This document shows positions 3,626-54,195 of a stretch of DNA of 64,000 nucleotides, piece by piece. Position numbers and translations under genes: made by a program. How positions within the stretch are numbered: position 1 is the stretch's first letter; the number at the start of each line of letters is the position of its first letter. Origin of the DNA: a virus (Duplodnaviria; Heunggongvirae; Uroviricota; Caudoviricetes); IMG/VR virus record IMGVR_UViG_2541047873_000001; one strand, 5' to 3'. The notes under the pieces are model-generated. The model was not told the DNA's origin, did no database searches, and saw nothing but the letters and a program-made list of their open reading frames with translations.

Positions 3626-3701
3626 ATCATGTTTTTGACAGTCTTCTCAGTATTAACAAGCTGATTATCATCCCCTCGGTCTTTTTCTATCCGGGGGATA
3701 A

Positions 3702-4094
3702 ATGGAGCAAATCAGTAGCGCCGAAATAGCGGATATCATGATCAGGGCTAACTGCTATCTGACGGTCACCGAAATCACCAGCCGTGCAAAAGCACAATAT
3801 CCTCACCTTCATGTGTCGCGCGTAAACGTAAATAACATCATACGTTTTTTTGTTCGTTCCAGTCGTGCCATTTGCGAAATAGACGACCGCGTATACCCCC
3901 GGAAATATTGGTTACATGGCCTGAATGGATACCAGTTCAAGGTGCGCGGGCGCACTCCTGAATTCGGTCGGCTGTTGGTGAAAAACACCAACCGAAAGAT
4001 AGAAGCTCAATTACGAAAGGAGCAGCGTCAGTTGGTGGCGATGACTAACCAGCTATGGAACGCCGCTGTGAAAAAACGTGAGGCTTCCCTATGA
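3702..4094 (+). CDS. Lpa-like late promoter activator candidate (by synteny)
   Basis: 130 aa basic protein directly upstream of pacA, preceded by an operator-like site; same arrangement as P1 lpa-pacA-pacB; no sequence-level identification. Confidence 0.35.
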   Translation: MEQISSAEIADIMIRANCYLTVTEITSRAKAQYPHLHVSRVNVNNIIRFFVRSSRAICEIDDRVYPRKYWLHGLNGYQFKVRGRTPEFGRLLVKNTNRKIEAQLRKEQRQLVAMTNQLWNAAVKKREASL

Positions 4095-5455
4095 CGTTAA
4101 TTAACTGGGAAGCGCATCGAGCTAAGTTCCTGGAGTTAAGAGAAGAAACCGGGATCACCATAAAAGAATATTGCGAGCAGCATGACCTCAGCTTTAACAC
4201 CGCCAGAAAGCATCTCAATATGAAAAAAAATGAGGTTAAGGCGAAAGCTAAGGCTGCCGGGAAAAGTACAAAACAGCGCGCAAAAAGCAGCGCCACCGGC
4301 TCAAAAAAAGAGCAAAAAAAGGCTGATAAAAGCACAGAATTTACAAAAACTGACAAATCGTTAGCTGGTGGACGGTTCCGCGCCATGCCGCAAAAACAAA
4401 ATGCGGATCACAAAGAAAAGCCAAGTAATAACAACAAGATACACAAGGATGTGAAGGGATCATTTTGTGATGAAATGGGAGAAATGATCCCTAAAAGCAG
4501 CGAAAAAGCCCAACGAAACAAGGGATCATTGCAAATGATCCCTGACTCATCAGCTCAAAGCGCCACTTTGCCTGCCACCAACGTCGCCCGTGAGATGATG
4601 AAGAACGGCGCGACTGAACATTTACGACTTGCGATACAGATGGCGCAGGAACGAGCAATTCAGTATCAGGCCATCGTTGACCAGGAAGCGGAGCGACTAC
4701 AGGAAGAGATTGACGCCCTCGGCGATACACAGCCAGAGGGGATGCACCCAGGGCAGCGTCTTCTCGGCCTAATAAGCGATGCGGCCTACTACATGAATGA
4801 CTTTATCAGTAGGTTGGCAGCCATCTACCAGACCGAGCAGAAGCTACGCCAGGGGGATGAAAAACTTGCGCAGGGCGCGCGTCAGCAGGCATTCAGGGAG
4901 GCTGAGGCCAGAGAAAAACTGGCGATTGCCCGCCTGCAAGCCGAGCAGCGTGGCAAAGAGATTGAGTATCGCATTGGCGCTGACGCACGCGCCGCCAGGG
5001 TTATCGCCGCCGCTATACGTATGCGTGAGCGCGAGGAGCTGGACGATATAGGCGTAGCTGAATATATCGAGCGGCAGGGCGTCAGTGTCCCGGCTATCCT
5101 GGCGGCACGAGCGGCAAAAGCGATCTCACTTCTGGAGCCTCCGGTTTCTGACGTTAACGATGTTGATGATGAGCAACTGGATAAAGAGGCGAAGCAGTTT
5201 GCCGAGCAACAAGCTGGACTCCCACAATGGCTTGCACAACGCCGGGCTGAAGTAGCGAAAATCGTTGATAGGCTTGGGATGGGGGATTACGACCGGAACG
5301 GAGAACGTAAAGCCGGTGAATTTGAGGCCAATGATGAAGACCTGAATATAGACCCTTCCGCCACGGCTGATATCTACGGTGATTATGACGCGGGGGATAC
5401 CGGTTTTGATGCTGTAGATGACGAGATTGCGATAGACCAGCCGGAGGATGACTAA
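4091..5455 (+). CDS. pacA: terminase pac-recognition subunit PacA-like
   Basis: 454 aa; N-terminal HTH-like segment, long charged coiled-coil middle; stop overlaps the large terminase start (TAATG); contains the GATC cluster. Confidence 0.6.
   Translation: MTLINWEAHRAKFLELREETGITIKEYCEQHDLSFNTARKHLNMKKNEVKAKAKAAGKSTKQRAKSSATGSKKEQKKADKSTEFTKTDKSLAGGRFRAMPQKQNADHKEKPSNNNKIHKDVKGSFCDEMGEMIPKSSEKAQRNKGSLQMIPDSSAQSATLPATNVAREMMKNGATEHLRLAIQMAQERAIQYQAIVDQEAERLQEEIDALGDTQPEGMHPGQRLLGLISDAAYYMNDFISRLAAIYQTEQKLRQGDEKLAQGARQQAFREAEAREKLAIARLQAEQRGKEIEYRIGADARAARVIAAAIRMREREELDDIGVAEYIERQGVSVPAILAARAAKAISLLEPPVSDVNDVDDEQLDKEAKQFAEQQAGLPQWLAQRRAEVAKIVDRLGMGDYDRNGERKAGEFEANDEDLNIDPSATADIYGDYDAGDTGFDAVDDEIAIDQPEDD
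4403..4546. other. candidate pac site (Dam-methylatable hexamer cluster)
   Basis: Five GATC-containing hexamers (GGATCA / TGATCC) in both orientations within about 140 bp inside pacA, including two copies each of gggatcatt and aatgatccc; P1 pac has clustered TGATCA/G hexamers within pacA. Confidence 0.5.
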
Positions 5456-6963
5456 TGGCTGGTGGTCGTAAGATTAAGTGCGTCACCAGTGATCCACGTT
5501 GGCGCGATATGGTTATCAGGTATCGATACAACTTTACCCAGGCGGTTGTCGATATTTTTGGGATGTTACCCTCCCACCAGCAGCAGCAGATCATTCAGTC
5601 AGTGCAGGAGACGGGGAGCAGGACGACCGTTACGTCCGGACACGGAACGGGTAAGTCGTCCCTTACCGCGATGTTGCTACTAATTTTCATGATCCTGTTC
5701 CCCGACGCCCGCGTCATTATTGTTGCGAACAAAATAGGCCAGGTAAAAACAGGCGTATTCAAATACGTGAAACAGTTTTGGGCGAATGCTGTTAAGCGTC
5801 ACGGCTGGTTACAGACCTATTTTGTCCTGTCTGACACCATGTTTTATGAGCGTTCCCGTAAAGGGATATGGGAAGTGCTCTGTAAAGGTTATCGACTCGG
5901 TAACGAAGAGGCACTGGCGGGGGAGCACGCTGAGCATTTACTGCTAATCCTTGATGAAGCATCGGGCATATCCGATAAGGCGATTAACGTCATGACGGGG
6001 GCGTTAACGCAGAAAGATAACCGTATGCTCATGCTTTCCCAGCCTACGCGTCCAAGCGGTTACTTTTATGAATCTCACCATTCAAGGGCAAAGGCAGAAG
6101 GCAATCCGGAAGGTGTCTGGACGGCAATAGTCCTTAACTCTGAAGAATCACCATTCGTTGAACCGAGCTTTATTCGTGAGAAATTGCTGGAGTACGGCGG
6201 CAGGGATTCGCTGGAGTACATGGTTAAGGTGCTGGGCCAGTTCCCGCGTGCAATTAACGGGTATTTGCTTGGTCGTGATGAGTGCGACCGCGCCGCACGG
6301 CGTAAAGTGTTGCTGGAGAAAGATTGGGGCTGGGTAGCGACCGCTGACGTCGGTAATGGTCGCGACAAATCGGTGCTCAATATATGCAAAGTATCCGGTT
6401 ATCGTGAGAAACGACGCGTTGTGAACTTTAAGATACTGGAGATGCCAGGCACTATGGACCCGTTGGCTTTTGCCGACTTTATCTATAACGAATGCACTCC
6501 TGATAAATACCCGAACATCACCATTGCTGTGGATGCTGATGGCTTTGGTTCAGATACGTGTGCGCAGCTTGTCCGCCGTGGTGCTAATCCCGTTCGCATC
6601 CGTTGGGGTAAGCCTATGTTTGCGCTAAGAGACAGAGAACGCTTTGTCAATCAGCGTGCTTACGCCAATATTATGGCAGGGGATGCCATTAAATCAGGGC
6701 GTATGCGTATCGATAGTGACCCCAAAACCGCAGATCAGGCATCAAAAATCCCGTATATGCTTAACGAAGAAGGGAAGGTAGCGATGATGCGCAAGGAGCA
6801 CATGCGGCAGAAGTTAAACATCAAGTCGCCGGACAGATGGGATACCTACTGCTTCACTATGCTGGTGGATTACGTGCCTGCTAATGAAGACATTGGCGCA
6901 GAACTCGCAACATTCCGCGATCAGGTGTTGGCAGAAGTGGATATTCCTGATATTGACATTTAA
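5455..6963 (+). CDS. pacB: terminase large subunit PacB-like
   Basis: 502 aa; Walker A-like GHGTGKS and downstream LLILDEASG (Walker B-like) ATPase motifs; follows pacA with 1-nt overlap. Confidence 0.75.
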   Translation: MAGGRKIKCVTSDPRWRDMVIRYRYNFTQAVVDIFGMLPSHQQQQIIQSVQETGSRTTVTSGHGTGKSSLTAMLLLIFMILFPDARVIIVANKIGQVKTGVFKYVKQFWANAVKRHGWLQTYFVLSDTMFYERSRKGIWEVLCKGYRLGNEEALAGEHAEHLLLILDEASGISDKAINVMTGALTQKDNRMLMLSQPTRPSGYFYESHHSRAKAEGNPEGVWTAIVLNSEESPFVEPSFIREKLLEYGGRDSLEYMVKVLGQFPRAINGYLLGRDECDRAARRKVLLEKDWGWVATADVGNGRDKSVLNICKVSGYREKRRVVNFKILEMPGTMDPLAFADFIYNECTPDKYPNITIAVDADGFGSDTCAQLVRRGANPVRIRWGKPMFALRDRERFVNQRAYANIMAGDAIKSGRMRIDSDPKTADQASKIPYMLNEEGKVAMMRKEHMRQKLNIKSPDRWDTYCFTMLVDYVPANEDIGAELATFRDQVLAEVDIPDIDI

Positions 6964-18250: not shown

Positions 18251-19246
18251 TCAGTTATTGAACGTGATCACTCCGCGCTCGATGGCGAAGTCGAAAAGCT
18301 GGTTGGCGGCTACGTAAAGGCGTATGCCATGTGCTTTTTCCCATGCCCGGACATCGTTTTCTGCGCTTCTGGCGCATTCATCGCAAAGAGGAACGGCCCA
18401 GCGATCGTGTTCGTTTAACGAGCGGGCGCGGTACATGAACGGGTGATTAACTTTGCCTCCGCATCCGATGCACGGACGAGAAATCACAAACCGGAGATAA
18501 GCCGGGCTTTTACCGAGAACCGCTTTTGGTCGGCGCATATACAGCAGGCCGGAATCCTCATCTACAGACAGGTTGACGATCTGCTCTGCGGTTATGTCCA
18601 CCAGCTCACGGGTGCTGTGCTCCCAGGTGATATCCGATTCTTTCAGTGTGCCGGTAGGGATTTCCTGTTTTGGCTGACAAAATGCAATGCGACCGGCTTC
18701 ATCTGGCAGCTCGTCTTTCAGATTCCGGCGAATGGCCCAAAAAGTGAGTTCAACCATGCTCAGATCGCGTTCTGGCGGTAGTTTTAACTCGCTCGCAGCC
18801 CAGTTCATAACCCAGTTGGCACGATTCAGGGATAACTGGTCATCCAGCTTGCCGTACCCCTTCATCATGTATTCCGCATCATGCTTCCAGCACAGGCGAA
18901 CGGCAGAGCCGTTATAGAAATGAGTGGTTAGCTGGTGGCTGCAATCGCGCTTATCGTGCGCCTGGCAATCGTGGATATTGGAACTTACCCAATGAACAAG
19001 CGAATCTTCACCGCCTAATGCGTTAAATACGCGCTCGCTTTGAAAAAATGCTTTCAGAGACTGGTTGGCAACCAGCGAATAGTTCAGATCCACTACGCCA
19101 TCTGGCGTGTTTTCAGCCTGTTCGCGCGGAAGTGGAGAGATAATGAAACGGCGACCTGCGCCAATGTAGTTGCTGGTGGGCTTGTCTACCGGAAAGACAG
19201 CCACACCAGCTCCGTTTACGAAATGAGGTGTGATTATTGCACTCAT
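18251..19246 (-). CDS. DUF968 (YdfU-like) protein
   Basis: 331 aa; C-terminal Cys cluster RPCIGCGGKV...PLCDECA typical of lambdoid DUF968 proteins; first gene after an operator-like pair. Confidence 0.55.
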   Translation of the reverse strand: MSAIITPHFVNGAGVAVFPVDKPTSNYIGAGRRFIISPLPREQAENTPDGVVDLNYSLVANQSLKAFFQSERVFNALGGEDSLVHWVSSNIHDCQAHDKRDCSHQLTTHFYNGSAVRLCWKHDAEYMMKGYGKLDDQLSLNRANWVMNWAASELKLPPERDLSMVELTFWAIRRNLKDELPDEAGRIAFCQPKQEIPTGTLKESDITWEHSTRELVDITAEQIVNLSVDEDSGLLYMRRPKAVLGKSPAYLRFVISRPCIGCGGKVNHPFMYRARSLNEHDRWAVPLCDECARSAENDVRAWEKAHGIRLYVAANQLFDFAIERGVITFNN

Positions 19247-28711: not shown

Positions 28712-29365
28712 ATGCAAAAGATCGCAATATTCAGTCTTTCTACTAACAAGCCGCTGATGGCTACGGCAGTCCTGAAAGACGGCGCGCTTGTAATTGACAA
28801 AGTAAAGCCGCTCCCTGCATCTGCTATTGAACAAAAACGAAAAATTCCACCAGCAATTGCCGAGCTGCGTAAAAGTGAATTTAAGGTGCTGGTTGACGAA
28901 ATCACGCCAACCATTTCAGCCGGTACAGGTGCCAGCCAGGTAACATTAAAAACACGGCACGCCGACGGCAGAGCAGCGATCATTGTCGGCATGGAGAGAT
29001 ACCGGGAGCTGAAACTACAAAGGCTGCTATCCCTGCCTGACAAGAACAAAGGGGCATTTGAGATCCCCGACTCTATCGTCGATACCGAATACAACGGCAA
29101 CGGTGAAGAGGTTTATCGAGTTAACTGGCAAGATATCCGACCAGAGCACATCCTGATGATTCTGTGCTGCTATGCAACGGTATACCACAATGTTGCCAGC
29201 GCGGATTACCTGAAACAAATGACAGGAGCGGTAGAGAAAGAAAACAAAGCAGGGATAATGGCCTCGTTCCTGTCCATTATCAGCGATCAAAAAGCTAAAG
29301 CAGGAAATACCCAACCAAAATCGCTGGCCGGGCAAGTAATTGATGAAGATACGGTGATACTTTAA
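28712..29365 (+). CDS. hypothetical protein
   Basis: 217 aa; preceded by TTGACA and TGGAAATCACAA motif. Confidence 0.5.
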   Translation: MQKIAIFSLSTNKPLMATAVLKDGALVIDKVKPLPASAIEQKRKIPPAIAELRKSEFKVLVDEITPTISAGTGASQVTLKTRHADGRAAIIVGMERYRELKLQRLLSLPDKNKGAFEIPDSIVDTEYNGNGEEVYRVNWQDIRPEHILMILCCYATVYHNVASADYLKQMTGAVEKENKAGIMASFLSIISDQKAKAGNTQPKSLAGQVIDEDTVIL

Positions 29366-37036: not shown

Positions 37037-37700
37037 TAACCGACCGCTGGCGGTGAGTCTTTGTGATTATACAGGGAATATGGTTTCCCCCTGGCTGGAA
37101 CACGGCATTGATGCAGTCATTGTCGATCCGCAACACCAGGAGTCCGGCAGCCAATTGATGGAGTCAGGTGCTGTACTCACACGTATCAGCGCAATTATTG
37201 ACAGTGATGAGGTCTACAATTTCCTTCGGAAAAATTTGCACAGAGTTGTATTTTTAGCCGGTTTCCCTCCGTGTACTGACCTGGCTGTATCTGGCGCACG
37301 CTGGTTCGCAGATAAAGCGAAAAAAGATCCGGTTTTCCAGTTCAAAGCAATGCAGGTTGTCTGGCAGTGTTACGACATTGCAAAGATGATTGGTTGCCCG
37401 TACATGATTGAAAACCCGGTCAGCCAAATATCGACATTCTGGCGTAAACCTGATCACATATTCCATCCTTATCACTTCACTGCATATTGCAAGGAAGACA
37501 ATTACACCAAAAAAACATGCCTGTGGAGCGGACAAGGATTCATCATGCCAACTCCGCGAATCGACGAGTCGTTAGGTGATCCAGACAACCGAATACACAA
37601 GGCACCGCCAGGACCTGAAAGAGCGAATTTTCGTAGCGCGACACCTTACGGTTTTGCAAGAGCTGTATTTGAAGCAAATAAGGAGGGAATCCGTGGCTGA
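37020..37700 (+). CDS. degenerate C5-cytosine methyltransferase-like protein (start uncertain)
   Basis: AGFPPCTDLAVSGA resembles C5-MTase motif IV (PCQ to PCT), MIENPVS resembles the ENV motif; motif I region degenerate; stop overlaps dam start. Confidence 0.45.
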   Translation: MKQSINNRPLAVSLCDYTGNMVSPWLEHGIDAVIVDPQHQESGSQLMESGAVLTRISAIIDSDEVYNFLRKNLHRVVFLAGFPPCTDLAVSGARWFADKAKKDPVFQFKAMQVVWQCYDIAKMIGCPYMIENPVSQISTFWRKPDHIFHPYHFTAYCKEDNYTKKTCLWSGQGFIMPTPRIDESLGDPDNRIHKAPPGPERANFRSATPYGFARAVFEANKEGIRG

Positions 37701-38610
37701 TATTGGTGCTAAATTTATTTCTTATAGCGACAATCATCGTCCTGCGGCGGAAGCCACTATCAGCCATATGCGACGTATTCGCTCGGAGGACGAATTTGAT
37801 CGCCCCGTCTTTAAGTGGGTCGGCGGCAAATTTTCTGCACTGCCCATTATCTTCGAACACCTGCCCCACGGAAAACGGTTGATAGAACCTTTCGTTGGAG
37901 GTGGCGCTGTTTTCACTAATGCCGGATTTAAAAGCAACCTGCTGAACGATATCAATAATGACCTGATTAACTTCTATCAGACATTGCAGCGTGAAGGGCA
38001 TTCTCTTATCACACTGGCATATCGTTTTTTTCAGGATTACAACTCTGCTGATGCATTTTTGAATGTTCGCAATGCATTCAACAATGGTGCTTATGATTCC
38101 CTTCACCATGCAGCGGCGTTCCTGTATCTCAATCGTCATTGTTTTAATGGCGTCACTCGCTATAACCGTAAAGGAGAGTTCAACGTCGGATATGGAAAGC
38201 AGAAATCCCCCCACTTCCCTCTCGCGGAAATGGAGGCGTTCCTGGCTGACGATATTTCAAAGTATTCGGAATTTGTGTCCGGCGATTTTGCTGGTGTAAT
38301 TGAGGCTGCAGGGAATGATGATGTGATTTTCTGCGATCCCCCCTATGAACCATTGCCCGACACTACCGGATTTACAAATTACTCAGGGCATAGCTTTAGG
38401 TTTGAAGATCAACAACGGCTGGTGTCACTGCTGGTGGATGCCCACAGACGCGGAGCGAAAATTGTGATAACAAACAGTGGTGCGCCTAACATTCGCGAAC
38501 TTTACGTTGGCAATGGCTTCAAGGTGTATCCTATGCCATCCCGTCGCTCTGTATCCTGTAAAGCATCAACCCGAATGATAGCTAACGACATTATAGCCAC
38601 GCTCAATTAA
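37693..38610 (+). CDS. dam: DNA adenine methyltransferase (Dam family)
   Basis: GTG start after aaggaggg RBS; FKWVGGK, EPFVGGGAV, FLYLNRHCFNG, DPPY motifs; hairpin terminator at 38613-38636. Confidence 0.9.
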   Translation: MADIGAKFISYSDNHRPAAEATISHMRRIRSEDEFDRPVFKWVGGKFSALPIIFEHLPHGKRLIEPFVGGGAVFTNAGFKSNLLNDINNDLINFYQTLQREGHSLITLAYRFFQDYNSADAFLNVRNAFNNGAYDSLHHAAAFLYLNRHCFNGVTRYNRKGEFNVGYGKQKSPHFPLAEMEAFLADDISKYSEFVSGDFAGVIEAAGNDDVIFCDPPYEPLPDTTGFTNYSGHSFRFEDQQRLVSLLVDAHRRGAKIVITNSGAPNIRELYVGNGFKVYPMPSRRSVSCKASTRMIANDIIATLN

Positions 38611-38744: not shown

Positions 38745-39032
38745 TCATTTTGTATCCTCAGACTCTGCAAGCATGAGGATAGCATGGCGGATCATATTCA
38801 ATTTGCTGCGATTATGCTTTTTGCTTAACGCATCAAGTACCTGGTACTCGTATTCATTGAAGCCAACACGAATGGATTTAAAATCACGTGGGGCGTCCTT
38901 ATCGAGCACTTTGTTGTCTTCTGGTTGCTCACCCGGCACCAAATCAGCTTTGCTGGCAAAAGCCTCAATTCGGCGTTCAAGATCGAGGTCTTTTACTTCG
39001 GGGGCTTTTACCGATTTACGAGGCTTAATCAC
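38745..39032 (-). CDS. ParG-like ribbon-helix-helix centromere-binding protein
   Basis: 95 aa; small protein overlapping the ParA stop; C-terminal SIRVGFNEYEYQVLDALSKKHN resembles RHH partition proteins. Confidence 0.5.
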   Translation of the reverse strand: MIKPRKSVKAPEVKDLDLERRIEAFASKADLVPGEQPEDNKVLDKDAPRDFKSIRVGFNEYEYQVLDALSKKHNRSKLNMIRHAILMLAESEDTK

Positions 39033-39666
39033 TTAATAACTCCTTAACCAACATCTGGATTTCACCTTTAGCTTTCCCGTTGTCCATCTCAACAACGCCC
39101 TTCCCTTCAGCCATACAATCGCGGTAAACCTTGCGATCGCGAATGATGGTTTTCAGCAACTTCAGTTGCGGATATTCAGCAAGGTACTCTTTGGCCTCAT
39201 TGGCTTCATTCACAACCGGATTGGATGGGGCCATTGTTAAGACTGCGCACGCCTTAATGCTAGGATTAGGCATCAGATCCAAAGCCTCTTCAAAGACTTC
39301 AACAAAATGCGCCAGCGTGTCTAAATCTGGCTGAGATGGCCTGAATGGAACAAGCAAAACATCCGCCGCAGTAATACCGGTGCGCATCTCTTTGCTATCA
39401 CGACCAGCGGTATCAACAACCACAAATTCATAACGCTTGTCCAGATCAAGAAGTGTTTCACGAATATTCCCAAACTTCTGGACGCAATGAATTACTGGAG
39501 AAACCTCTGCCGCATTACGGTCCGATGCCCAACGGGCAGATGTTCCTTGCTTATCTGCATCAAGTAGAACTACGTCCTTATTTGCGCGGGCAAGCTCCGC
39601 ACAAATGTTTACGCTGGTGGTTGATTTGCCACAGCCACCTTTTTGGCTGGCTACCAATATAATCAT
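39025..39666 (-). CDS. parA: ParA-family partition ATPase (small ParF type)
   Basis: 213 aa; deviant Walker A KGGCGKST at N-terminus, no N-terminal HTH extension. Confidence 0.85.
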   Translation of the reverse strand: MIILVASQKGGCGKSTTSVNICAELARANKDVVLLDADKQGTSARWASDRNAAEVSPVIHCVQKFGNIRETLLDLDKRYEFVVVDTAGRDSKEMRTGITAADVLLVPFRPSQPDLDTLAHFVEVFEEALDLMPNPSIKACAVLTMAPSNPVVNEANEAKEYLAEYPQLKLLKTIIRDRKVYRDCMAEGKGVVEMDNGKAKGEIQMLVKELLSD

Positions 39667-39669
39667 ATC

Positions 39670-39900
39670 CGTTCCTCGGTGTTATTTTGGTATCAAAATG
39701 GTTCCAAACAGAAGCCTTATTGATGCGGTTTTGGCTCTATAGTGGAGTCACTATGCTTTGCAAAAGTATAACACTAAACACTCTAAATTTGCCCTCTGTT
39801 GCATCCTGTTTAACACGAAATCAGCCTCAAAGTGGAACCAGACACAAAACAGCACCATAACAACACCGTTTTGGTACTAAAATAACACCAGATTAGAACC
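39670..39900. repeat. partition-site (centromere) repeats upstream of parA
   Basis: ggtgttattttggtatcaaaatggttcc and aacaccgttttggtactaaaataacacc: iterated GGTA(C/T)(T/C)AAAA and AACACC elements. Confidence 0.55.
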
Positions 39901-39907
39901 ATGACAG

Positions 39908-39936
39908 TATAAAAAAGGCTGCAAATTGCAGCCTTT
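39908..39936 (-). terminator. rho-independent terminator after parR
   Basis: On the minus strand: hairpin ggctgcaatttgcagcc followed by T6. Confidence 0.6.
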
Positions 39937-39951
39937 GAAGATGTAGATTTG

Positions 39952-40317
39952 TTAATCAGGGAGTGAGTTTGCCAAATTCTGTGCAGAGCGGCTTTTCGAA
40001 ACGCCAGGTTTTTTAACATCCACTGAGGCAGAGGGGTTTCCTTCAGGGTTTTCCCGAACTTCAGGCGAAATTTCAAGAAATGAAACCAGCATTTTTCTGA
40101 TCACTTCAGGGCTATTATCACCGGATAAAAGCGATGCCAACATGGGAGGTAATCTGCTATCAACCTCGCCAAGAGCGATACCTGCAAGCATCGCTGTGCG
40201 CGCCATATCATTGCGATCTCTTAATGGATGGCCCTCAAGTTTTGCATCAGCATATTGCTCACTGGCGTTAAGACCAGGACGAAGATAAAACAATACTTTT
40301 CGACGTTCCTGAGACAT
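39952..40317 (-). CDS. parR: ParR-like centromere-binding protein
   Basis: 121 aa directly downstream of parM; N-terminal RKVLFYLRPGLN...ARTAMLAGIAL resembles R1 ParR. Confidence 0.55.
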   Translation of the reverse strand: MSQERRKVLFYLRPGLNASEQYADAKLEGHPLRDRNDMARTAMLAGIALGEVDSRLPPMLASLLSGDNSPEVIRKMLVSFLEISPEVRENPEGNPSASVDVKKPGVSKSRSAQNLANSLPD

Positions 40318-40327
40318 GGCAACCTCA

Positions 40328-41287
40328 TCAACCGATAGATTTTAGACCATAGACAAGAGCAAGTTGTGGATCATCAGCAACGAAAAACCTATCGTCACGA
40401 ATGTTTACCTGCTCACGGATAGCATCAGCAACAAGCGGCGCGCCGCCACCAATGACCATAACATGCGTGTATCCTTTGAAATCACTGATCACATCCAGTA
40501 CGCGTGTACGGAGTCGTTCTATGCTTGACGAAATGGCTTTCTTAACATCATCAATAGCTGACGGATCGTTAATATTGTCGGTCAAATAATCCTCATCATC
40601 ACGATTAATGATTAATTGATCGACATTATAATTAGAGGTTTCGGTATTCGCTTTTGCAAGTGCCTGTCTGACCTCTTTAGTTACCAGCGAAACGCCGAGA
40701 TTAGAATCGCCAAATACGCGAGAAACGGCGGTCATTTGCCCGGCGACCATCGACACATCCAGAGTGGTCCCACCAAGATCAACAATAAGCACAGAATGCG
40801 CTGGCACAAGGCTGTCGCACAGACCGATCCCTGCGGGTATTGACTCCGGGCGCACAGTCACTTTTTTGATAGTAAAAACCTGACCTTTGTTAAGGGTGAC
40901 TGGTCGCATCAGGCTGGCCTTTTTCCGCTCAATATTTTTCATGTTGTATTGTGCGTCGTCGTCATAAAACTCTGCCAGTGGCAACGTGACAACTATTTCC
41001 ACTTCTTGAGGCTCAATGCCACTTGTAAGCAGGGCATGATGAACAGCAAGCACATTAAGCGGGCTGTATTGCCATTCAACGTTATTCGTCGGCAGCACAT
41101 CCGGCGAGATCAAGTCATATGAATATTTTTCGTCATCAATGATGTAGTTAAACGGCTTTCCTGCGCCAAATGTGGCGGACCATCCACGTTTAAAACTGTT
41201 CGGACAGATATGGGTTCGAGTTTCCCCGTCTTGTTCCCACAGCATTTTGATATTGGTAGAACCATCGTCGATAAAAATGCGCATCAT
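40328..41287 (-). CDS. parM: ParM actin-like segregation ATPase
   Basis: Internal start MMRIFIDDGSTNIKM matches the ParM/StbA N-terminus; actin-fold phosphate motifs (DLGGTTLD, VIGGGA). Confidence 0.85.
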   Translation of the reverse strand: MMRIFIDDGSTNIKMLWEQDGETRTHICPNSFKRGWSATFGAGKPFNYIIDDEKYSYDLISPDVLPTNNVEWQYSPLNVLAVHHALLTSGIEPQEVEIVVTLPLAEFYDDDAQYNMKNIERKKASLMRPVTLNKGQVFTIKKVTVRPESIPAGIGLCDSLVPAHSVLIVDLGGTTLDVSMVAGQMTAVSRVFGDSNLGVSLVTKEVRQALAKANTETSNYNVDQLIINRDDEDYLTDNINDPSAIDDVKKAISSSIERLRTRVLDVISDFKGYTHVMVIGGGAPLVADAIREQVNIRDDRFFVADDPQLALVYGLKSIG

Positions 41288-41294
41288 ATTGCTC

Positions 41295-41480
41295 CACTTC
41301 TGAGACACATTTGAGAAAGAATTGAATTTTATATGAGAAAACAAAATAAGACCAGAAGTTAGATAGCGTAAAAAGCATCAAACTAGAGATGTAAAAGAGA
41401 CACAAAAGAGACTTATATGACACATGATATACCCACGATACCCATTTGAGACAAATCAGAGACAAATATGAGAAGTAAGA
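41295..41480. repeat. parC-like centromere iterons
   Basis: At least eight copies of (T/A)GAGA(C/A)A at about 10-11 bp spacing upstream of parM. Confidence 0.6.
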
Positions 41481-52759: not shown

Positions 52760-53050
52760 AAACTTGAGGGCAATATCTACACCTGCTGTTTACGTCAATG
52801 ATGGCATTTTTTACACATCACAACAAAATCAACGCGTTACAACCATAAAACATTCAACAGTAGTGCGATAAAAATAGCTATAGCATACGATGCCATCTGA
52901 GGGTGATTTTTACACATTCCTTATTAATCAATAAATTACAAATAATGTTAGCCGTTAAAGATCCAACCAACTAACTAATGATGTAAGAATTGCCCTCAAT
53001 CTCCCATCTTTAAGGGCAAATCCTACACCTACAGAGAGGTGTAGAAATTG
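52760..53050. repeat. iteron cluster downstream of repA (incA-like)
   Basis: About five iteron-like copies in both orientations (ttgagggcaatatctacacc, ctgagggtgatttttacaca, ttaagggcaaatcctacacc and inverted copies). Confidence 0.6.
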
Positions 53051-53053
53051 CCC

Positions 53054-53809
53054 TTAAGACTGCTGATAGGTGAATTTTATTTTTGTAACTCTGCCACCTT
53101 CTGTAACCTCTGAGAAAACTATTTTCATTTTTGTGTTTTTTTCGATTTCAGCTACAGCTTTTGCCAGAAAGCTTCTCTTAAATTCGGCGTACCGTTGATA
53201 GCTTTTGGGAAGACCATAACGCTCCCGCATCCATTCAACGCCAAGTATAGCGAAGCCGCTCCCATCATCCTTTCTATACTGGCATAAGGACTCATAAAGC
53301 CGCATAGAATAAGGGTTTGTCAGGCGAGACACTTCAGTAAAATTCAGCCTCGTGAACCTCTTATCAAGCAGAGTAAAAAACGGCATGAGATATGGATTCA
53401 GATGAATAATGTAAGTCCCCCGGCGTGGTGAGTAAGCCTCCTTAATCATCCAGGGATAAGACTCATAACTGTCTTCTGATTCGGTTGATTCATCAGGGTT
53501 ATATATCGTGACTTTCTTCTCACTAAGTCCGGAGATAGCTTTACGAATATCCTTGCTGGCTTCAGCAGAGGGCAAATTATACATCTCTGCATATTCGTTG
53601 ACCGTCAACTCACAGGCACCTGAACCAAGAACGCCATCCTTAGAAGCATAGCGAAGTCTTCCCACCACAATAAACAACAGTCGCTTTTGGTCGCGTGTCA
53701 GGTGATAAGCCGCCTCTGTGATCTCATTGGCCTGCGCCAAGCTACGGCTAATTGGTGTCGCTGATTCAATCAGACTGACGGCTTTTGCCGTTAATTCCGC
53801 TCTGTTCAT
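53054..53809 (-). CDS. repA: replication initiator RepA (iteron-binding)
   Basis: About 251 aa from MNRAEL; flanked on both sides by iterons as in the P1 R replicon. Confidence 0.75.
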   Translation of the reverse strand: MNRAELTAKAVSLIESATPISRSLAQANEITEAAYHLTRDQKRLLFIVVGRLRYASKDGVLGSGACELTVNEYAEMYNLPSAEASKDIRKAISGLSEKKVTIYNPDESTESEDSYESYPWMIKEAYSPRRGTYIIHLNPYLMPFFTLLDKRFTRLNFTEVSRLTNPYSMRLYESLCQYRKDDGSGFAILGVEWMRERYGLPKSYQRYAEFKRSFLAKAVAEIEKNTKMKIVFSEVTEGGRVTKIKFTYQQS

Positions 53810-53832
53810 AACCCTGTGTGATCCTTCAAATG

Positions 53833-53952
53833 GTGAGGGCAATTTTTACATCACTTTGAGGGCAATTACTACACCTTTTGAGGGCAAATCTTACACCTGC
53901 TGAGGGCAAATCTTACACCTCAATAGCTTAATTGAGGGCAAATCTTACACCT
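53833..53952. repeat. origin iterons (incC-like), five direct repeats
   Basis: Five copies of TGAGGGCAA(A/T)T(C/T)TTACACC at about 22-23 bp spacing immediately upstream of repA. Confidence 0.8.
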
Positions 53953-54038
53953 TGGTCCTCTACAAGCCCCGCCACCCCTGGCCTCCGTGATGCCTAAAAA
54001 GGATCTAAAAAGGATTAAAAAGAGAAAAAGGTTTATAA

Positions 54039-54047
54039 AAATACTCT
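54039..54047. promoter_or_regulatory. DnaA box
   Basis: ctgtggata (reverse complement tatccacag) next to an AT-rich stretch with GATC sites (aaaaaggatctaaaaaggattaaaaag). Confidence 0.5.
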
Positions 54048-54195
54048 GTGGATATGTGAATTGCGTCACTTAAGGTGTAAAAATCACCCTCAATAGTTGC
54101 TGTTCGATCGACAAAGATCCTTATTCAATACTCCCACAAATCACACACTCCCTATCCTCTGAAAAACTAACTGAACCTAGCTTTCGGAGGAATCC

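Follow-up and report, generated by a model that had tools for sequence, protein, structure and literature searches.

A probable RepE/ori2-family plasmid replicon in a D6-like phage-plasmid of the P1 supergroup

Three described plasmid replicons come closest to the one considered here: that of F (mini-F, comprising ori2/oriS, incB, repE and incC; IncFIA), whose parts are listed in PMC13028717; that of P1 (oriR, incC iterons, repA and incA; IncY); and p0111 (pO111_2, JL22, SJ46), an alternative plasmid replicon of the P1 supergroup. According to the literature, P1-like phage-plasmids are either IncY or p0111. For D6-like plasmids, a "repB associated with iteron sequences" is in print (PMC6799933), orf42 of phage D6 is annotated as a "replication initiation protein ... 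similar to P1 gene repA?", and in a 2025 preprint D6 repB serves as a screening marker and is reported to be missing from plasmid-typing databases (bioRxiv 10.1101/2025.09.12.675607). Here we analyze a 64,000-nt stretch of viral DNA (IMG/VR record IMGVR_UViG_2541047873_000001; hereafter "the window") and the iteron replicon that it carries at 52.7-54.2 kb, including the initiator gene rep. An earlier note on this sequence had labeled the replicon P1-type. We propose instead, with a probability of roughly 0.88, that it belongs by descent to the mini-F ori2/RepE family and not to P1 oriR/RepA, and that it is the plasmid-maintenance (theta) replicon of a D6-like phage-plasmid of the P1 supergroup. 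The replicon itself is already known, since D6 carries an annotation for its gene and iterons beside repB are in print; its placement in the RepE/ori2 family and a base-level map are added here.

The family assignment comes first from the protein. Rep matches Pfam Rep3_N (2e-29, 103 bits; cutoff 22.4) and Rep3_C (3e-15, 56.8 bits; cutoff 21.1), i.e., the two winged-helix domains of a Rep_3 iteron-binding initiator. In BLASTP it is homologous to F RepE throughout its length, with 50% identity across 228 residues and the same protein length (E 2e-86), and it aligns with the RepE chains of the PDB (1REP/2Z9O) at E 2e-73. Comparison with P1 RepA gave E 0.056 and no real alignment. Relatives of Rep in the databases are graded, at 98, 78, 72, 64, 60, 57, 55 and 52% identity, into ordinary RepE proteins.

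The DNA around rep supports the same placement. Loci were fetched for the 78, 72, 64 and 57% relatives, and all four share one layout: a run of four to six direct iterons stops just short of the rep start, and an inverted iteron overlaps the stop codon or comes soon after it; further copies vary in number from 1 to about 13. The window and D6 likewise have an inverted iteron that overlaps or closely follows the rep stop codon, and in F one abuts it. An alignment of the DNA upstream of the initiator gene from the window, D6, F and the four relatives matches the origin with F ori2 element by element and in order: the DnaA box or boxes (TTATCCACTTATCCAC in F, AATTCACATATCCAC in the window), then TATTTTTATAA and T-tract repeats, among them TTTTTAGATC, next a G+C-rich spacer, and last the iterons. 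The elements of the replicon are listed below. As rep is on the minus strand, "upstream" of it means higher plus-strand coordinates; scores in bits refer to a weight matrix built from the five origin iterons only and scanned over both strands of the window.

53809..53054, minus strand: rep, 251 aa, with its ATG at 53809 and its stop codon at 53056-53054
53810..53833, minus strand: leader of 24 nt from the last iteron to the ATG, invariant in six plasmids
53834..53951, plus strand: origin array of five direct iterons; on the rep-sense strand the iteron reads GGTGTAAGATTTGCCCTCA
53952..53989, no strand: G+C-rich spacer (68% G+C) separating the iterons from the A+T-rich region
53990..54046, minus strand: A+T-rich region (75% A+T; the window as a whole has 52%) in which CCTTTTT/TTTTTAG motifs recur and a single GATC occurs (54002)
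54047..54055, minus strand: DnaA box, ATATCCACA, an 8/9 match, preceded by a degenerate second box (AATTCAC)
54074..54092, minus strand: far-side iteron, TGAGGGTGATTTTTACACC, inverted, beyond the DnaA box, 20.8 bits
53567..53585, plus strand: intragenic iteron-like site, AGAGGGCAAATTATACATC; GATGTATAATTTGCCCTCT in rep sense, where it encodes MYNLPS
53038..53056, minus strand: iteron d1, TAAGGGCAATTTCTACACC, inverted, its first three bases being the rep stop codon, 22.6 bits
53011..53029, plus strand: iteron d2, TAAGGGCAAATCCTACACC, 2 mismatches to the consensus, 24.4 bits
52980..52998, minus strand: iteron d3, TGAGGGCAATTCTTACATC, inverted relative to the origin iterons, 2 mismatches to the consensus, 27.3 bits
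52898..52916, plus strand: iteron-like copy d4, TGAGGGTGATTTTTACACA, conserved in D6-type plasmids, 17.2 bits
52799..52817, plus strand: iteron-like copy d5, TGATGGCATTTTTTACACA, degenerate, repeat family D2, position conserved in D6-type plasmids, 17.1 bits
52765..52783, plus strand: iteron d6, TGAGGGCAATATCTACACC, in origin orientation, the outermost downstream copy, found as a repeat-finder match, 22.7 bits

Five direct iterons upstream of rep at about 22-bp spacing, as claimed by the earlier note, were recovered by repeat finding and a consensus search. They are 19 bp long, start at 53834, 53857, 53879, 53901 and 53933 (spacings of 23, 22, 22 and 32 bp), and three of the five have the exact sequence TGAGGGCAAATCTTACACC. 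The downstream array that it described, with copies in both orientations, is likewise present as six copies at 52765-53056, four oriented like the origin iterons and two inverted. Within it, d2 and d1 form a 21-nt inverted pair, 6 nt apart and 90% complementary (inverted repeat I5); d4 is 95% complementary to the copy at 54074 (repeat I4); and d6 is kept in D6-type plasmids despite flanks that are only ~63% identical. Matches in Rfam were sub-threshold and miRNA-like, caused by the iteron hairpin, and gave no sign of antisense-RNA control.

Neither the far-side iteron nor the intragenic site had been listed in the earlier note. The former is identical in all six aligned plasmids, and in the 72% relative three inverted copies occupy the corresponding position. 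The latter scores 19.8 bits, rank 11 in the whole window. The 72, 64 and 57% relatives keep it at the same codons, also at synonymous positions (Leu is TTG or CTG, Pro is CCC); the 78% relative lacks it, and F has only half of it. This intragenic site is possibly an extra Rep-binding site, and it also holds a perfect TATAAT on the rep-sense strand.

Chance does not account for these arrays. At three or fewer mismatches the iteron consensus has 7 matches, against 0.02 expected in shuffles. Thirteen of the 14 top matrix matches fall within 52.7-54.2 kb, eight of these 13 having played no part in building the matrix, and outside the locus matches of at least 15 bits number 1 in ~125,000 positions. 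That single outside match, at 19227-19245 (minus strand, TGAGTGCAATAATCACACC, 17.3 bits), starts one base into the ATG of an open reading frame at 18251..19246 and is probably a chance occurrence.

Conservation follows the same map. Six sequences were aligned, namely those of the window, of D6 and of another four plasmids. The window is identical to D6 at 95.6% in the iterons, 93.5% in the A+T-rich region plus DnaA box, and 99% at codon positions 1 and 2 of rep, compared with 76.8% at codon position 3 and 63% in the remaining intergenic DNA. The five origin iterons are identical in the two although two of the spacers between them differ, and none of the six sequences varies in the block 53800-53898, which takes in the leader and the three iterons nearest rep with their spacers. 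Four amino-acid changes against 58 third-position changes point to strong purifying selection on rep. Conservation of the locus above the neutral level, like its anatomy and its homology, is a direct observation.

The DnaA box and the A+T-rich stretch that the earlier note placed beyond the upstream array are both there, at 54047-54055 and 53990-54046. By itself an 8/9 DnaA match carries no significance in 64 kb, where 9 were found and 14 expected; we accept this one because of its positional homology to the tandem DnaA boxes of F and its conservation in all relatives, the TCCAC column being invariant across F and six relatives in the alignment. The region 53990-54046, alignable with the A+T-rich region of F ori2, is the predicted unwinding region. 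The G+C-rich spacer is an element that occupies an equivalent position in F, P1 and all relatives, though its sequence is poorly conserved between the window and D6. By eye and without statistics, 53964-53986 (AAGCCCCGCCACCCCTGGCCTCC, plus strand) agrees with the P1 oriR spacer (AGGCCGCGCCACGTCTGGCTTAG, rep-sense) at about 17/23 positions, in the opposite orientation relative to rep.

The resemblance to P1 that underlay the earlier label is real at the level of layout. In both replicons a DnaA box, an A+T-rich region, a G+C-rich spacer, five origin iterons, rep and a second array with copies in both orientations follow one another, the promoter would have no room outside the iterons, and the element served is a P1-supergroup phage-plasmid; P1 RepA, moreover, matches the same Pfam superfamily weakly (Rep3_N, 25.7 bits), and the p0111 protein is likewise a weak Rep_3 member. 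Such features would fit a true P1-family replicon (oriR/RepA, IncY-like) with diverged iterons. The match stops short of two P1 hallmarks, however. In place of the five clustered GATC of P1 oriR (annotated Dam sites), 53990-54046 holds a single GATC; two further GATC, at 54106 and 54116, are not conserved across the aligned D6-type plasmids. The second array is not followed by parA-parB-parS: the P1 replicon lies beside gene 23 and has parAB/parS adjacent, whereas that of the window lies between homologues of tub and pmgB, with ParM/ParR-type genes ~12 kb away. The second arrays also differ in number, with nine incA iterons in P1 and six copies here. No P1 iteron core (of the GATGTGTGCTGGAGGGAAA type) occurs in the window, in agreement with the claim that the iteron sequence is unlike that of P1, and a matrix of 14 P1 iterons finds no match in 52.7-54.2 kb. 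A tblastn search with P1 RepA returned 36 phage records, D6 not among them. Because of the RepA and RepE comparisons (E 0.056 against E 2e-86) and the alignment with F ori2, P1-family membership is refuted, and we leave it next to no probability. The best matches to the P1-iteron matrix in the window are weak and distant from the replicon; the top one, at 29134-29152 (minus strand, GATGTGCTCTGGTCGGATA, 16.6 bits), stands alone.

A p0111 identity, which was expected at first, was also rejected (pO111_2 RepB against Rep: E 0.023, 18/64 identities). The p0111 initiator shares with Rep the NCBI label "RepB family" but is ~40% identical to P1 RepA and sits at the P1 repA position next to parAB.

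Relative to F, the window replicon shares a homologous initiator, 22-bp-phased iterons and a second array at the rep stop codon. In F the first incC iteron is inverted too, beginning immediately past the stop codon of repE; iteron d1 overlaps that of rep. The two differ in that F has four origin iterons rather than five and a second array of five incC copies, all inverted, rather than six of mixed orientation; the extra inverted iteron beyond the DnaA box and the iteron-like site within rep are unlike F, and no sopABC adjoins the window replicon.

The iterons themselves are related but not the same. In rep sense, GGTGTAAGATTTGCCCTCA of the window corresponds to TGTGACAAATTGCCCTCAG of F; the half ATTGCCCTCA is common to the whole family, and the other half is GGTGTAAG in the window and TGTGACAA in F (F TGTGAC; GTGAC against TGTAA/TGTAG). 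The IncFIA-specific iteron TGTGACAAATTGCCCTCAG is accordingly unmatched apart from the ATTGCCCTCA half. Judged by these sequences, the iteron is an F-family iteron with one half-site changed, and the earlier note's "own iteron sequence" holds for that half, ATTGCCCTCA being that of F. According to a review of RepE-DNA structures, it is the variable half in which the second winged-helix domain (WH2) of RepE contacts GTG and GtCA (PMC4980987). In the protein alignment, the helix SAEASKDIR of the first winged-helix domain is invariant, while a segment LP.SYQR...F.R.FL, the putative WH2 DNA-binding segment, differs at several residues.

These comparisons bear on whether the replicon is functionally IncFIA, i.e., whether F RepE and Rep would cross-react on each other's iterons, leaving the replicon incompatible with F and without a group of its own. 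The 50% identity to RepE, the invariant SAEASKDIR and the identical ATTGCCCTCA half would allow this; the differences at WH2-contacted bases and in the putative WH2 segment speak against it, as do a score below the RepE equivalog cutoff (see below) and the replicon's own MOB-suite cluster, rep_cluster_1704, which is found on all fetched relatives. We regard functional identity with IncFIA as improbable. Strain MIN14, a candidate case of co-residence with a RepE plasmid, is uninformative, since its "IncFIA" plasmid shows no RepE. That plasmid, NZ_CP069648.1 (pMUB-MIN14-2), has the MOB-suite type "IncFIA,IncFIC" via PLSDB and carries only an IncFII-type RepA; no RepE is annotated in the whole record and none was found by tblastn of the first 50 kb. 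The IncFIA label on pMUB-MIN14-2 is unreliable. With respect to P1, the predicted separate incompatibility group is consistent with the unrelated initiator and iterons and with a report in which a few E. coli isolates carry P1-like and D6-like phage-plasmids together (bioRxiv 10.1101/2025.09.12.675607).

The control region of rep departs most clearly from F. From the last iteron to the ATG there are 24 nt in the window, against 97 nt in F; the gap is also 24 nt in the 78 and 72% relatives and at most about 42 nt in the 64 and 57% relatives. In F this stretch holds the promoter and an inverted repeat, TGTGACAA..TTGTCACA, bound by RepE dimers (PMC13028717). No F-type inverted-repeat dimer operator was found in the window leader, which has no short-range inverted repeat, or in the 64 and 57% relatives. 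The leader does carry GATCACAC (53823-53816), resembling the right arm of the F operator. As candidate operator arms near the ATG, GATGTAAA and GATCACAC were rejected for lying about one helical turn further apart than in F, and the inverted iteron pair at the rep 3' end was rejected as a dimer operator of the F kind on account of its polarity, which is opposite to that of the F operator.

As there is no room in the 24-nt leader, the rep promoter would have to overlap the iterons. Pairs of -35 and -10 elements sought by hand inside the iterons had spacers of 10-12 or 20 nt, which left only an extended -10 reading: TGTAAAAAT (53850-53842, minus strand) in the rep-proximal iteron would be an extended -10 in the same register as TGTGACAAT of F. 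With no separate dimer operator, autorepression would probably act through iteron occupancy, as in P1. A more specific idea, that the D6 branch rewired its autoregulation by losing the dimer operator, using the rep-proximal iteron as an extended -10 and adding the intragenic iteron as an extra Rep site (a roadblock or pairing partner), is tentative, and we consider it unlikely on present evidence; if true, it would place an F-type initiator under P1-style control.

Residue 124 of Rep (53443-53445), the equivalent of RepE Arg118, is Glu in the window, Asp in D6 and the 78% relative, and Arg or Lys in more distant relatives. In F, the RepE mutant R118P shows a strongly raised copy number, an effect that its authors ascribe to an increase in monomeric RepE (PMC13028717). 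Glu or Asp at this position may bear on dimerization in a clade without a dimer operator.

We classify the window as a D6-like member of the P1 supergroup because of its identity to plasmids and to D6 and the gene content of a complete twin plasmid. Three E. coli plasmids, 90-93 kb in size, match the segment at 99.9% identity. Plasmid records that match it number 111, from Escherichia, Salmonella and Shigella, 108 of them non-mobilizable; the sublineage of the window accounts for 6 of the 111. The segment is 90% identical to phage D6 at the DNA level, and Rep shares 247 of 251 residues (98%) with D6 orf42. The twin plasmid (89.7 kb) carries phage structural genes, repL, a cre-like gene, phd and similar genes; in its annotation rep is the only plasmid-type initiator, and the only other replication gene is repL. 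D6 and D6-like plasmid prophages such as pYU39_89 ("repB") have the same replicon, with 98% identical Rep, identical origin iterons and the same flanking genes.

In both the window and D6 the replicon lies between tail-gene homologues. Its neighbors are plus-strand homologues of P1 tub and pmgB, with rep antisense between them; the module sits antisense within a late tail-gene block and, as part of the rewired-control idea above, could be switched off by lytic-phase transcription. Upstream of the pmgB homologue, six plasmids share an unchanged block at 54138-54161 (AAATCACACACTCCCTATCCTCTG) amid variable intergenic DNA; this block is a possible promoter or regulatory element of the tail genes that lie downstream. 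The -22 box of P1 late promoters was searched for near pmgB, this block included, and was not found.

Pfeifer et al. named the group P1-g2 and described replication and partition genes as separated there (PMC7969092). In the window, partition-type genes lie ~12 kb from the replicon, at 39025-41344, and partition is predicted to be actin-type (ParM/ParR-type). These genes and a nearby methyltransferase gene are:

40328-41344, minus strand: ParM
39952-40317, minus strand: ParR/StbB-like protein
39025-39666, minus strand: small ParA-like ATPase
37576-38610, plus strand: Dam-class adenine methyltransferase

Compared with D6-type plasmids, the outer downstream array of the window has diverged (~63% identity), and the window, like its sublineage, lacks a 48-bp segment (between 52741 and 52742) that bears an inverted pair of P1-type iterons. 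In D6 this pair occupies 5708-5749, just after tub and at the outer edge of the RepE-type array, and consists of TATGTGTGCTGGAGGGTTG and inverted CGTGGGTGCTGACGGGAAA (23.7 and 17.1 bits with the matrix from 14 P1 iterons); the same pair is present in other D6-type plasmids (L015 389-430, L016 305-346, L017 311-352). Since D6 has no P1 RepA homologue, these are orphan sites, and they could be decoys against P1-type plasmids or a recombination scar. In the 78% relative (L009, an 87-kb metagenome contig), units of ~180 bp make up the array behind rep (4765-5290 and 3661-3720). Every unit contains two P1-type iterons placed back to back (19-25 bits), iterons of the RepE type in both orientations and a G+C-rich segment like the P1 oriR spacer; P1-type sites number eight in all.

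Several points count against our assignment. Rep scores 281.4 bits with the NCBIfam RepE equivalog NF010305, below the cutoff of 342 and well short of F RepE (537.8), such that equivalence of detailed function with RepE is not guaranteed. The DnaA box is only an 8/9 match and the second box is degenerate; three downstream iteron copies are degenerate; a promoter scan predicted no canonical sigma-70 promoter for rep; and no experiment on this replicon was found in the literature. The degenerate copies and the missing canonical promoter, together with the odd position in a tail-gene block antisense to its neighbors, might also be expected of a decaying relic, the plasmid state being kept by another replicon of the element. 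Yet rep is intact and under strong purifying selection, conservation of the iterons, the DnaA box and the A+T-rich region far exceeds the neutral level, no other plasmid-type initiator is annotated in the complete twin plasmid, repL being the lytic replicon, and the module is kept in 111 circular plasmids of three genera. We therefore judge a relic to be very improbable, and retain the assignment to a maintained RepE/ori2-family replicon.

How such a replicon would work can be outlined from F, and we infer every functional step by homology with F unless marked otherwise. Rep monomers would bind the five 22-bp-phased iterons at 53834-53951, and Rep together with host DnaA at 54047-54055 would open the adjacent A+T-rich region, 53990-54046, and the host helicase would be loaded. 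The six iterons behind rep, the far-side inverted iteron and possibly the intragenic one would act like F incC or P1 incA. These control iterons would hold the copy number near one through titration of Rep and Rep-mediated pairing with the origin. Specificity is predicted to differ from F in the half-site contacted by the second winged-helix domain of RepE, with ATTGCCCTCA and SAEASKDIR shared.

In summary, the placement of this replicon does not overturn current understanding, but it has consequences for typing and for the biology of the group. D6-like phage-plasmids are widespread in E. coli, Shigella and Salmonella, and kinship with RepE/ori2 together with defined iterons provides a marker for them and a basis for considering their incompatibility. 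The P1 supergroup would use at least three interchangeable plasmid replicons: P1 RepA, p0111 and the RepE type. Finally, the clade represents a natural variant of the F replicon without a dimer operator, and could help to separate the roles of RepE monomers and dimers.

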